This document shows positions 9,080 through 10,569 of a stretch of 25,251 nucleotides of DNA, piece after piece. The position numbers were made by a program, and so were the translations under genes. The DNA is from a virus: the IMG/VR virus record IMGVR_UViG_3300035698_028775; one strand, 5' to 3'. The stretch's first letter is position 1. Each line of letters starts with the position of its first letter. Below the pieces are notes generated by a model. It saw only the letters and a program-made list of their open reading frames with translations. It was not told the origin of the DNA and made no database searches.

Positions 9080-9394
9080 TCACCCAAATTCTATTATCCT
9101 TCTGCTACGCTCCTTTGATGCTCGTTCAAAAGCAGCCTCTAACTGATTTTTCATCCATATATCTTTAGGTGCAATACCACTGGCACTTTGGTCAGCAACC
9201 TGCACGAAATAACCGCCATTCATAAGCTGTTCAAAAGCGTGTTTATCTACTTGTTGTTGTTGAATGTATCCTACAAAATCCTTGAGCTTCACAAAATCCT
9301 TTTGTAATTGAATATCAGTACGTTGAATAAAATTATCACCGATAAGACGTTTAGCCTTTTCCATAGTAAAATACGGTTTCATTCTATCATCCAA
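9080..9394 (-). CDS. hypothetical protein (alternative start at 9382)
   Basis: ORF in operon. Confidence 0.4.
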   Translation of the reverse strand: MDDRMKPYFTMEKAKRLIGDNFIQRTDIQLQKDFVKLKDFVGYIQQQQVDKHAFEQLMNGGYFVQVADQSASGIAPKDIWMKNQLEAAFERASKERSRRIIEFG

Positions 9395-10569
9395 TCCCTG
9401 TTAATCGGTTCCTTGGCTTTGACCGTTCTAAGTAATCTCTTAATGTTCTCCCTGGCCCTATCCTCACATCTTTCATAAAAATAATCAGTAAAATATATTC
9501 TATCCCTTTGCAACAATTTCACCATTAAAGTCTTTCTCCCACTCCAAAATTCTATATCACGAACTTCCTCAAATTCCTGTCTAATACATCTATTAATATC
9601 AGCAAAATCATCCCAATCCGTAGCCAAATGCGCCAAATCCAAATCCATCATGTAATGAACATCATTATCATCATCTATATCATCAGGTGAGAAATGTTTT
9701 GCCGTGTTCAAAATCAGTTTTTGCACAATGGATATAAAAGACTTTTCAAAATTTATCTTATTCATCCTGTCAAAATTTCTAAACGCATTCACCGATGATT
9801 GCTCGTTATCAACCACATCATGCCACCATATTGCCATCTCAACAGCATCAGGATTTTCAAGGTTATCTTTTATCCTATCAAAATATTTTAACATATCACA
9901 AATATGCGCAAATGTATGATACTTCTGTTTCTTTATCGAATAATCTGAACGTAACTCAGAATATACCGTTTCCCTTGAACTTACATTTTGTAAAATGTAA
10001 TTTTTTCTATCGTTCTTTGCCATTAATTCAAAAAATCTGTTTCGATAACAATTCTTTTCACCCAATAAATATGCATATGTAATTCGTGAAACGTAATCCC
10101 TTACCGTTTCTTCCCATCCATCATAATTTAATAACATCCGAACCGCACTCGAACTCACATGCTCCAGTTTCGGAGGCGAAATAATAAATATCGTCGTCAA
10201 ATCGTCATTTATCTTGTTGTTAGCCCTTACACCCGATTTCTCATAATCCAAATCTTTGCCGTCCCTTACACCCTTGAAAAAATATTTCACACCCCGCTCT
10301 TTCGCATATTGAGCCAATAATTTCCCCTTTTCCAATACCACAACTTCAACATTTTTAAGATGAAGCGTCAATAATTCCATAATACTCACACGCTCTTCAG
10401 AAACCTTTTTAAGTTTAGCCCAATCCCCCTTGCCCTCAGTAATTATTTTATCGTAATTATTCGCAATAACCACTATAAACTCATCAAATAATTCAGCACC
10501 CTTCTCGATTATCCACTCATGCCCCTTCGTCGGTGGATTAAATGAACCAGCGAATATTGCAGATTTCAT
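9379..10569 (-). CDS. CoaD/NadD-like class I nucleotidyltransferase domain fused to a C-terminal HD phosphohydrolase domain
   Basis: N-terminus: AIFAGSFNPPTKGH (T/HxGH), EERVSIMELLTLHLKNVEVVVLEKGKLLAQYAKERGVKYFFKGVRDGKDLDYE..., ISSSAVRMLL (ISSTxxR-like), collinear with phosphopantetheine adenylyltransferase. C-terminus: H (HTFAH) ... HD (WWHDVVD) ... H ... D (MMDLDLAHL), typical HD spacing. Confidence 0.65.
   Translation of the reverse strand: MKSAIFAGSFNPPTKGHEWIIEKGAELFDEFIVVIANNYDKIITEGKGDWAKLKKVSEERVSIMELLTLHLKNVEVVVLEKGKLLAQYAKERGVKYFFKGVRDGKDLDYEKSGVRANNKINDDLTTIFIISPPKLEHVSSSAVRMLLNYDGWEETVRDYVSRITYAYLLGEKNCYRNRFFELMAKNDRKNYILQNVSSRETVYSELRSDYSIKKQKYHTFAHICDMLKYFDRIKDNLENPDAVEMAIWWHDVVDNEQSSVNAFRNFDRMNKINFEKSFISIVQKLILNTAKHFSPDDIDDDNDVHYMMDLDLAHLATDWDDFADINRCIRQEFEEVRDIEFWSGRKTLMVKLLQRDRIYFTDYFYERCEDRARENIKRLLRTVKAKEPINRDWMIE

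Follow-up and report, generated by a model that had tools for sequence, protein, structure and literature searches.

A putative huge-phage protein combining a phosphopantetheine adenylyltransferase (CoaD) domain with an HD-superfamily phosphohydrolase domain, and its possible place in coenzyme A metabolism

The fusion gene and its surroundings

The window considered here, by which we mean the whole analysed stretch of viral DNA (25,251 nucleotides), carries on its minus strand a gene whose product joins a phosphopantetheine adenylyltransferase (PPAT, CoaD) domain to an HD-superfamily phosphohydrolase domain (Table 1). The sequence-only reading that drew attention to the locus had delimited this reading frame without giving its strand and described the product as a fusion of CoaD-like and HD parts. 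The frame was found to be real, and the fusion is borne out by the score of the N-terminal part above the cutoff of TIGR01510, by the match of the C-terminal part to phrog_19425 and by the existence of full-length relatives. The AF2 model of the full-length protein has a pLDDT of 92.6 and a pTM of 0.89, and the latter value indicates that in the predicted structure the two domains are packed against each other in a fixed, rigid manner. The linker between them remained without any family match in the Pfam, NCBIfam and phrog profile searches.

Table 1. Features of the fusion gene, its product and the neighboring loci (positions are those of the window)
Feature	Position	Strand	Remarks and basis
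CoaD(PPAT)-HD fusion gene	9379..10569	minus	396 aa, ATG start, stop codon included; ORF list
PPAT (CoaD) domain	10072..10569	minus	residues 1-166; TIGR01510, PDB PPAT matches, alignment to E. coli CoaD
T-K-G-H nucleotidyltransferase motif	10519..10530	minus	residues 14-17; H17 invariant, T14 and G16 each in 76/80 relatives
S-S-S ATP phosphate-binding motif	10147..10155	minus	residues 139-141; aligned with E. coli S128-S130
Helical linker between domains	9958..10071	minus	residues 167-204; AF2 helices 162-171, 176-185 and 191-209, pLDDT 82-93
HD-superfamily phosphohydrolase domain	9421..9957	minus	residues 205-383; phrog_19425 'phosphohydrolase', E 5.9e-30
H218-x3-H222 (Y-H-T-F-A-H-I)	9904..9918	minus	both H in all 80 fused and all 94 standalone relatives
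HD dyad H250-D251	9817..9822	minus	invariant in all relatives
D309-L-D311 (family motif D-I-D-L-A-I-L-G), last metal-ligand aspartate	9637..9645	minus	D311 invariant, D309 in 79/80
Downstream 100-aa gene	9080..9382	minus	ATG overlaps the fusion gene stop codon (ATGA); ORF list
35-codon ORF between motif and fusion gene	10619..10726	minus	ORF list
Promoter-like 25-nt motif copy	10752..10776	minus	plus-strand reading CCTATATANNATTGGNNGTATATAA
NMNAT gene	3923..4453		NF002243, 158.7 bits (cutoff 127)

Because of the start/stop overlap, the downstream 100-aa gene, for which no family match was obtained, is probably co-translated with the fusion gene. The 25-nt motif occurs six times in the window, always in the same orientation and always upstream of minus-strand genes, with none expected in shuffled sequences, and we infer that it acts as a promoter. 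The fusion gene had been credited with its own copy of this motif, which is correct as to its presence; the copy, however, is 183 nt upstream of the ATG, and the short ORF lying in between may head the transcript that also carries the fusion gene. A scan for sigma-70 promoters and terminators around the fusion gene gave results no better than those for shuffled sequence. The NMNAT gene, reported at about 5 kb, indeed lies 4.9 kb from the fusion gene. Protein similarity to LR756500 and LR756501 suggests that the locus belongs to a huge phage; no match was obtained when the window as a whole was compared with phage records by megablast, an assembly index did not contain the exact protein, and no homologues were found in phage records for a 95-aa ORF upstream of an MVP-like gene.

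The two domains and their active sites

Over its first 166 residues the protein is collinear with bacterial CoaD (TIGR01510; the E. coli enzyme, 1b6t; the E. faecalis enzyme, 3nd5) and keeps the catalytic and substrate-binding residues of that enzyme. The NCBIfam coaD equivalog model TIGR01510 is matched over residues 4-166 with 114.2 bits (cutoff 103.3), Pfam CTP_transf_like over residues 5-144 (E 6e-12), and among solved structures 34 PPATs were retrieved, with 3nd5 at the top (E 3e-19). All sequence blocks on which the collinearity had initially been proposed were located, namely PTKGH (residues 13-17), VSSSAVR (138-144) and EERV...NVEVV (58-77). Alignment to E. coli CoaD revealed conservation of H17, K41, R102, D106, E110, N117 and S139-141, and the equivalents of E. 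coli H18, K42, R91, D95, E99, N106 and S128-130 are invariant or nearly invariant among 80 relatives (S140 in all of them, S139 and S141 in at least 92%). The functional roles of K42, R88, R91, D95, E99 and N106 are known from published structures of E. coli PPAT. Judged by its sequence, the N-terminal domain is a PPAT of bacterial type, predicted to convert ATP and 4'-phosphopantetheine to dephospho-CoA and PPi. Whereas CoaD is a single domain of about 160 aa, the fusion protein adds a C-terminal extension of 230 aa, carries a G-W (W152) specific to its family where the domains join, and has 10 residues inserted after K41, a stretch that the AF2 model renders with low confidence.

At three nearly invariant sites the phage protein departs from its family: N11 stands where the relatives have D, K99 replaces the equivalent of E. 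coli R88 (R in 79 of the 80), and Q215, already within the C-terminal domain, replaces an arginine present in 97-100%. Because of these substitutions and the low-confidence insertion, its activities may differ from the family norm. N11, K99 and the insertion, together with the NMNAT encoded by the same phage, might be taken to mean that the substrate adenylylated by the domain is a different one (NMN/NaMN or some metabolite specific to the phage) and that the protein is unrelated to CoA. We consider this highly improbable, given that the score lies above the CoaD equivalog cutoff, whereas the NadD/NMNAT models reach 15-26 bits, far under their cutoffs of 112-315, that the pantetheine-contacting N117 is conserved, and that fusions with the dephospho-CoA kinase CoaE occur within the same family. 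The same low scores leave the NAD-related function, proposed earlier along with the CoA-related one, without support. Nor does the N-terminal domain match the GlnD/GlnE transferase family, to which its reassignment had been contemplated; besides CoaD, the models that it matched were related cytidylyltransferase-like ones only.

The C-terminal domain adopts an all-helical HD fold. The H...HD...H...D spacing ascribed to it was confirmed for H218, H222, H250-D251 and D311, each invariant in 80 relatives, so that the catalytic HD residues are all present, but the third histidine of this scheme (H292) is found in only 29 of the 80. With the thresholds used, the phage protein itself has no significant Pfam HD match, and PF01966 is matched, weakly, by 11 of 30 relatives (best E 1.3e-5). 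Membership in the HD superfamily is deduced from these matches, from the similarity of the family profile to the solved hydrolase 3djb (E 1.2e-6; YedJ and YpgQ were matched as well) and from the fold. As far as sequence can tell, the intact H-x3-H / HD / D site makes the domain a metal-dependent HD phosphohydrolase.

Its nearest neighbors by fold are class I cyclic-nucleotide phosphodiesterases together with YpgQ/YedJ, the best matches being the phosphodiesterases and not the diphosphatases. The likeness to phosphodiesterases is restricted to the fold: Pfam PDEase_I is unmatched, the signature H-D-x-x-H-x-G is absent, and the family has HD-x-x-Y (HDVVDN in the phage protein) where class I enzymes have HD-x-x-H; compared to PDE1/2/4/5/9, a eukaryotic family to which no sequence-level match was obtained, the domain is also shorter (225 versus about 330 aa). 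YpgQ (B. subtilis, 5dqv), YedJ (E. coli, 3gw7), 3djb, 3dto and 2pq7 share 11-14% identity with it and are not fused to CoA enzymes. YpgQ is reportedly an NTP pyrophosphohydrolase and, to our knowledge, the only one of these five proteins with a characterised activity. Comparison by sequence and close structure did not place the domain among YqeK / COG1713 Ap4A hydrolases, and matches of the C-terminal domains to GlnD were marginal (3 of 30 relatives, E 0.012).

Distribution of the fusion and its possible role

The fusion had been regarded as unusual, and this assessment has to be abandoned. When the protein alone served as query, a word-indexed search for homologues returned just three weak matches, and it was the exhaustive HMMER scan that revealed a large family, in which the fusion is full-length and collinear in more than 150 cluster representatives, 121 of them at E<1e-30. 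Both domains are present in approximately 217 of 264 fetched proteins, arranged as CoaD-HD (195), HD-CoaD (18), CoaD-CoaE-HD (3) or CoaE-CoaD-HD (1). The carriers are CPR bacteria and DPANN archaea, where the fusions are cellular and occur in housekeeping-like context, and at least four huge phages. Bifunctional CoaD-CoaE proteins, combining the last two steps of CoA synthesis, are found among the relatives (P0001, P0245 and P0250), some of them with HD as a third module. Eukaryotic COASY is a functional analogue of CoaD-CoaE. The phage protein, in contrast, lacks a CoaE domain, and no CoaE was detected in the window. One Nanoarchaeota ORF encodes CoaD-CoaE-HD, a CoaD-CoaE gene was found directly followed by an HD gene (loci L083 and L028), and in a planctomycete (L049) coaD is located directly upstream of the HD gene. 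No partner of the HD domain other than CoaD or CoaE was encountered among 264 + 39 retrieved proteins.

Both domain orders, the triple fusions with CoaE and the adjacency of coaD and HD genes connect the HD domain with the end of the CoA synthesis pathway; it thus appears to work in the pathway of CoaD and CoaE, and the CoA-related option of the sequence-only reading gains strong support. The assertion that such an architecture is not characterised stands insofar as literature searches found no paper describing a CoaD-HD fusion; for a nucleotidyltransferase followed by an HD domain, however, there is a precedent. Public databases label the CoaD-HD proteins as PPAT only. In NadD-YqeK of mycoplasmas and other Firmicutes (PMC9426524) a nicotinate-mononucleotide adenylyltransferase is combined with an HD diphosphatase / Ap4A hydrolase, and YqeK hydrolyses dinucleotides that its partner has made in error. 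The logic and the order are the same, a cofactor adenylyltransferase of the same superfamily being followed by an HD hydrolase.

The phage protein is best read, with a probability that we would put at roughly 0.45, as a bifunctional enzyme in which PPAT is combined with a nucleotide diphosphatase/phosphodiesterase acting on pantetheine nucleotides in salvage or proofreading. By analogy with YpgQ and NadD-YqeK, the HD domain would act on nucleotides that contain pantetheine, cutting their phosphoanhydride or phosphodiester bond; candidate substrates are host CoA species, or dephospho-CoA/CoA analogues that are damaged or were made wrongly. The released 4'-phosphopantetheine would be re-adenylated by the fused PPAT, and in sum the CoA pool would be salvaged or kept under quality control. 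Joined to CoA-making enzymes, a CoA/dephospho-CoA hydrolase that did not single out aberrant species would be in danger of driving a futile cycle. In the phage, the gene may serve as an auxiliary metabolic gene sustaining or reshaping host CoA during infection, as NMNAT may do for NAD, and CoA would thereby join the cofactor pools that huge phages may manipulate. Were the HD domain a proofreading or salvage diphosphatase, the family would be the second case, after NadD-YqeK, of a cofactor adenylyltransferase combined with an HD hydrolase. More broadly, the fusions point to a way in which ultra-small CPR/DPANN symbionts and huge phages may keep up their CoA supply when the early steps of its biosynthesis are missing.

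Other assignments of the HD domain were weighed against the same data. It might be a general house-cleaning pyrophosphohydrolase like YpgQ, which converts (d)NTP to (d)NMP and PPi and would sanitise or tune the ATP pool of CoaD with no specificity for pantetheine; repeated independent fusions to CoaD and CoaE only, the rigid packing of the domains in the AF2 model and the very distant likeness to YpgQ (E 0.15, 14% identity) make this unlikely. The resemblance of the fold to phosphodiesterases lends some plausibility to the degradation of a nucleotide signal, suggested already in the sequence-only reading, and more generally to a phosphodiesterase or 3'-phosphatase acting on 3'-phosphorylated adenosine, be it pAp from phosphopantetheinyl transferases, the 3'-phosphate of CoA, a 2',3'- or 3',5'-cyclic nucleotide or, for the phage protein, an immune signal of the cyclic-nucleotide type. 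We find this rather unlikely in view of the missing phosphodiesterase signatures noted above; moreover, a CoA 3'-phosphatase fused with CoaE would be futile, known defence and anti-defence models are unmatched (PADLOC defence models gave no match for the fusion protein), and a signal-degrading role leaves the chromosomal CoaD/CoaE fusions of CPR/DPANN unexplained.

Finally, the HD domain could strip 4'-phosphopantetheine from holo-acyl-carrier protein in the manner of AcpH, or remove PPi, thereby pulling the reversible PPAT reaction forward. PPAT does make PPi, and the fusions put the HD domain beside it; E. coli AcpH is said to be a phosphodiesterase and a non-canonical member of the HD family, and to yield the compound on which PPAT acts. 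Nevertheless, hhalign comparison of the family profile with E. coli AcpH, for which itself no solved relative was found, gave a probability of 0.15%, and we know of no inorganic pyrophosphatase with an HD fold, so that either function seems improbable.

The standalone HD family

The C-terminal domain has standalone relatives of about 200 aa, and standalone homologues from genomes match the HMM of the fused domain with E-values from 1e-26 to 1e-72. Approximately 18 conserved residues are common to 94 standalone and 79 fused sequences, and the family is marked by the motifs R-x-Y-H-N-x-x-H-I, W-x-H-D, N-E-x-x-S-A, D-I-D-L-A-I-L-G, R-x-E-Y and A-R-x-N. The phage protein keeps this set except for R215 (Q), with DLDLAHLA in place of DIDLAILG, and its C-terminal domain is by these motifs a member of the family; it can be argued that fused and free forms share one activity. 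Literature searches found no paper on the standalone family and no described function for it, and the fusions place in the context of the CoA pathway a large family of HD hydrolases with neither a significant Pfam match nor a described role.

Standalone genes occur in free-living Proteobacteria, Bacteroidota, Cyanobacteria and other phyla, among them Acinetobacter, Moraxella, cyanobacteria and Pseudomonas, the last with over 100 plasmid records. These loci were taken from the matches listed in a scan of genome contigs with a degenerate DNA pattern for D-I-D-L-[AS]-I-[LF]-G, which covers about 19% of the family motif variants, so that the ratio of fused to standalone forms in genomes is not quantitative. 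Clustering of the neighborhoods of about 100 standalone genes among the matches listed revealed no conserved partner, the largest cluster comprising four loci. Since no conserved association with CoA genes emerged for these homologues from free-living bacteria, the activity of the family may be more general. A bolder proposal, which we consider doubtful, makes this family the missing bacterial enzyme that breaks down CoA-type dinucleotides when they are damaged, mis-made or in surplus, and perhaps dephospho-CoA RNA caps too, with 4'-phosphopantetheine as the product; the fusions would then be a compact module of CoA reconstitution and repair. If so, genomes lacking the early CoA pathway, and phages in the course of infection, could rebuild CoA from host-derived material, which would constitute a CoA counterpart to the NAD-reconstitution pathways of phages.

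Long stop-to-stop ORFs containing the HD domain in high-GC genomes were considered as new fusions, had no Pfam domains and most likely are over-extended ORFs. The names given to the standalone proteins vary: JGI lists a 'predicted metal-dependent HD superfamily phosphohydrolase', and RefSeq uses 'metal-dependent hydrolase', 'hypothetical protein' and the mislabel 'NMDAR2C subunit'.

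The two domains of the fusion protein

Residues 4-166 of the query are matched by TIGR01510, the NCBIfam equivalog model of CoaD, with 114.2 bits against a curated cutoff of 103.3; Pfam CTP_transf_like also matches this part, as do 34 solved phosphopantetheine adenylyltransferases (PPATs), the best being 3nd5 (E 3e-19). Alignment with E. coli CoaD (from NC_000913.3) and family members, with conservation scored in 80 relatives, revealed invariant or nearly invariant H17, K41, R102, D106, E110, N117 and S139-141, equivalent to H18, K42, R91, D95, E99, N106 and S128-130 of the E. 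coli enzyme, for which we take the roles to be those known from published E. coli PPAT structures. The query deviates in N11 (D in 76 of 80 relatives), K99 (R in 79 of 80) and a 10-residue insertion after K41, which is of low confidence in the predicted model. All motifs quoted for this domain in the sequence-only reading are present, and every sequence criterion places it in the CoaD family; a transferase other than PPAT is hardly credible. Models of NadD and NMNAT give only 15-26 bits with cutoffs above 110.

The C-terminal domain (residues 205-383) is matched by phrog_19425 'phosphohydrolase' (E 5.9e-30), while a Pfam search with the same residues gave no match. H218, H222, H250, D251, D311, E332 and N375 are invariant in the 80-sequence alignment, and R215 (Q in the query), Y217, E256, S259, T289, D309, Y333, R345 and A372 nearly so. 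The H...HD...H...D arrangement suggested earlier is there, except that its third histidine, H292, is not conserved (29 of 80 relatives). Since, apart from the invariant residues, a profile of 30 members of the domain matches HD hydrolase structures 3djb (E 1.2e-6) and 3dto, 11 of these 30 reach Pfam HD, and the AlphaFold model is confident (pLDDT 90, pTM 0.88), the domain is a bona fide member of the HD superfamily with PDE-like helical arrangement. The same profile weakly matches YedJ and YpgQ. Membership in the PDEase_I, YqeK or AcpH families was rejected, hhalign assigning AcpH a probability of 0.15%. An AcpH-like or PPi-removing role is highly improbable.

Distribution of fused and standalone forms

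The fusion had been regarded as unusual, and a word-indexed homologue search with the query indeed returned almost nothing; an exhaustive HMMER scan over 1.84 billion cluster representatives instead disclosed a large family, with 121 matches at E<1e-30 and the best 150 being essentially all two-domain, full-length proteins of about 370 aa. Sorting of 264 fetched proteins with HMMs of each domain gave 195 CoaD-HD, 18 HD-CoaD (order reversed), three CoaD-CoaE-HD and one CoaE-CoaD-HD architectures, the CoaE domains of the triple fusions being confirmed by Pfam. Two-domain proteins, where named in their sources, are called simply 'pantetheine-phosphate adenylyltransferase', and no description of the CoaD-HD architecture was found in the literature covered, which took in only a minority of subscription journals. 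The query protein is a new member of an existing, unstudied family. Another recurrent CoaD fusion, of about 350 aa and devoid of the HD domain, combines CoaD with PF01035, the DNA-binding domain of methylated-DNA-protein-cysteine methyltransferase (fetched proteins P0204, P0206, P0207, P0212, P0214 and P0218).

Cellular carriers include Candidatus Levybacteria (CPR), where the gene lies on the chromosome close to dnaA and truB, a 485-kb contig with the fusion between hisS/relA/clpB and fmt/lexA, Micrarchaeales (DPANN) with reversed domain order, and Nanoarchaeota with a CoaD-CoaE-HD ORF (genome locus L083). The fusion is also carried by contigs with archaeal genes (Cdc6/Orc1, TrmB and RIO1 among them), one encoding the best match of the query (P0004, 35% identity). 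Viral carriers are huge phages LR756500.1 (462 kb; 29% identity; the sole phage record matching over the full length) and MH622943.1 (419 kb), as well as a phage-like contig (160-346 kb).

A degenerate DNA pattern encoding D-I-D-L-[AS]-I-[LF]-G, run over a single genome of each GTDB species, yielded at least 120 loci. Among the matches listed, at least 105 harbor strong homologues (1e-26 to 1e-72 with the HMM of the fused domain), nearly all unfused and of about 200-230 aa, in Proteobacteria (Acinetobacter, Variovorax, Comamonas, Ectopseudomonas and others), Bacteroidota, Gemmatimonadota, Cyanobacteria, Planctomycetota, Chloroflexota, Saccharibacteria and Parcubacteria. The standalone and fused forms share the same conserved residues. 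In RefSeq the former go by 'hypothetical protein', 'metal-dependent hydrolase' or, in error, 'NMDAR2C subunit'; the JGI name is 'predicted metal-dependent HD superfamily phosphohydrolase', and they have no precomputed Pfam domains. The family also occurs in 138 plasmid records, 111 of them from Pseudomonas (e.g., NZ_CP131792.1 32606-33103 and NC_014533.1 199441-199941), either annotated as 'hypothetical protein' or mislabelled 'N-methyl-D-aspartate receptor NMDAR2C subunit'. Clustering of gene neighbourhoods revealed no partner conserved among the matches listed, with two exceptions: the HD gene directly follows coaD in a Humisphaera MAG (L049) and directly follows a CoaD-CoaE gene at another locus (L028). 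Long HD-carrying ORFs of high-GC genomes lack Pfam domains and, being most likely over-extended, were not accepted as further fusions.

Possible function of the HD domain

Judged by its sequence, the query holds two intact catalytic modules, and in the full-length model (pLDDT 92.6, pTM 0.89) their relative orientation is confidently fixed. The HD domain has been repeatedly and independently fused or placed adjacent to CoaD and CoaE, with no other partner in the samples, and we infer that its substrate is a metabolite of the final two steps of CoA synthesis. To the reading of the protein as a PPAT joined to an active, CoA-linked hydrolase we give a probability of about three in four. YpgQ, among the nearest relatives with known activity, cleaves nucleotide phosphoanhydrides, and a generic NTP house-cleaning enzyme is an unlikely alternative for the domain. 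That it is a phosphodiesterase or 3'-phosphatase with pAp, CoA or cyclic nucleotides as substrates, a role in phage counter-defence included, is rather improbable; PADLOC models gave no match to the fusion protein.

To our knowledge, NadD-YqeK is the sole characterised adenylyltransferase-HD fusion. Its HD domain hydrolyses dinucleotides mis-made by the partner with the wrong NTP (PMC9426524). By analogy with YpgQ and NadD-YqeK, the CoA-linked HD domain would convert X-pp-pantetheine to XMP and 4'-phosphopantetheine, X having a wrong base or deoxy sugar or being 3'-phospho-ADP from damaged or host CoA, and the fused PPAT would then re-adenylate the released 4'-phosphopantetheine, one chemistry serving both quality control and salvage. 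This specific diphosphatase model is put forward tentatively; such chemistry fits the enrichment of the fusion in CPR bacteria, DPANN archaea and phages, where the early CoA pathway would usually be absent. CoaD-HD is a CoA-pathway variant of the adenylyltransferase plus hydrolase theme known from NadD-YqeK and NadM-Nudix, and its chief value is that, like a Rosetta stone, it connects CoA metabolism with a large HD family that has no significant Pfam match.

Genomic context in the window

The strands differ to an extreme and even degree: nearly all long ORFs from about 1 kb on occupy the minus strand, and over 1001-25251, at 33-41% GC, every 1-kb step has a GC skew of about -0.3 to -0.5 except that at 1-2 kb (-0.07), the first kilobase having the opposite skew (+0.41). 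Six copies of a 25-nt motif (plus-strand CCTATATANNATTGGNNGTATATAA; two TATATA boxes, 10 nt apart) are present where chance would give 0. All share one orientation and closely precede minus-strand genes, and the motif probably serves the phage as a promoter or regulator site. One copy falls inside the annotated start of an ORF, which suggests a later true start. As proposed previously, the fusion gene has its own copy, followed by a 35-codon ORF, and since the next gene downstream overlaps its stop codon (ATGA), the fusion gene seems to belong to a short operon headed by the motif. The NMNAT noticed earlier at about 5 kb is likewise there, archaeal in type, 4.9 kb away in a separate motif-headed block; hence the phage encodes predicted adenylyltransferases for both NAD and CoA. 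No CoaE was found in the window, and the CoaE HMM does not match the P-loop kinase.

Features of the window
Feature	Coordinates	Strand	Remarks
HNH endonuclease	1534-2469		
Nicotinamide-nucleotide adenylyltransferase	3923-4453	-	NF002243, 158.7 bits (cutoff 127)
P-loop kinase	6553-7176	-	AAA_33; polynucleotide-kinase-like by PHROGs and NCBIfam; N-terminal CxxC...CxxC zinc-ribbon-like segment
25-nt motif	7183-7207, 16016-16040, 21515-21539, 23542-23566		
25-nt motif, fusion gene	10752-10776		
25-nt motif inside annotated start	22664-22688		
Orphan	8583-9074	-	
Downstream gene	9080-9382		
CoaD-HD fusion	9379-10569	-	ATG start, 396 codons
35-codon ORF	10619-10726		
Orphan	10802-11200	-	
MVP-like protein, 782 aa	11330-13678	-	MVP shoulder domain E 6.6e-29; Vault_3 repeat
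95-aa ORF	13672-13959	-	
Nucleoside 2-deoxyribosyltransferase-like	13916-14449	-	Nuc_deoxyri_tr2 E 2.4e-30; phrog_30579 E 1.2e-48
Radical SAM protein	19595-20461	-	weakly like prokaryotic viperins (PADLOC pVip E 2.4e-8) and QueE-like phage proteins
ORF with probable later start	21590-22750		
TnpB/Cas12f-like	24866-25243	-	C-terminal TNB domain at window edge, E 3.3e-16

Neighbouring ORFs are mostly orphans. Since phage-database homologues of the major-vault-protein-like (MVP-like) protein occur only in huge phages LR756500/501/503 (40-43% identity), the window most likely belongs to a huge phage akin to LR756500/LR756501. The 95-aa ORF, which has no match in the phage database, overlaps the start of the MVP-like gene by 7 nt in another frame and may represent a gene of its own, a frameshift or a sequencing error. 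With the TnpB/Cas12f-like and HNH genes, the phage genome contains two genes of mobile elements. The two orphans flanking the fusion gene, for which a weak phrog_7397 match was the only one found, have a common N-terminal motif K(R/K)IGF(I/V)SNSS(T/S)..F.I.G and may be paralogues.
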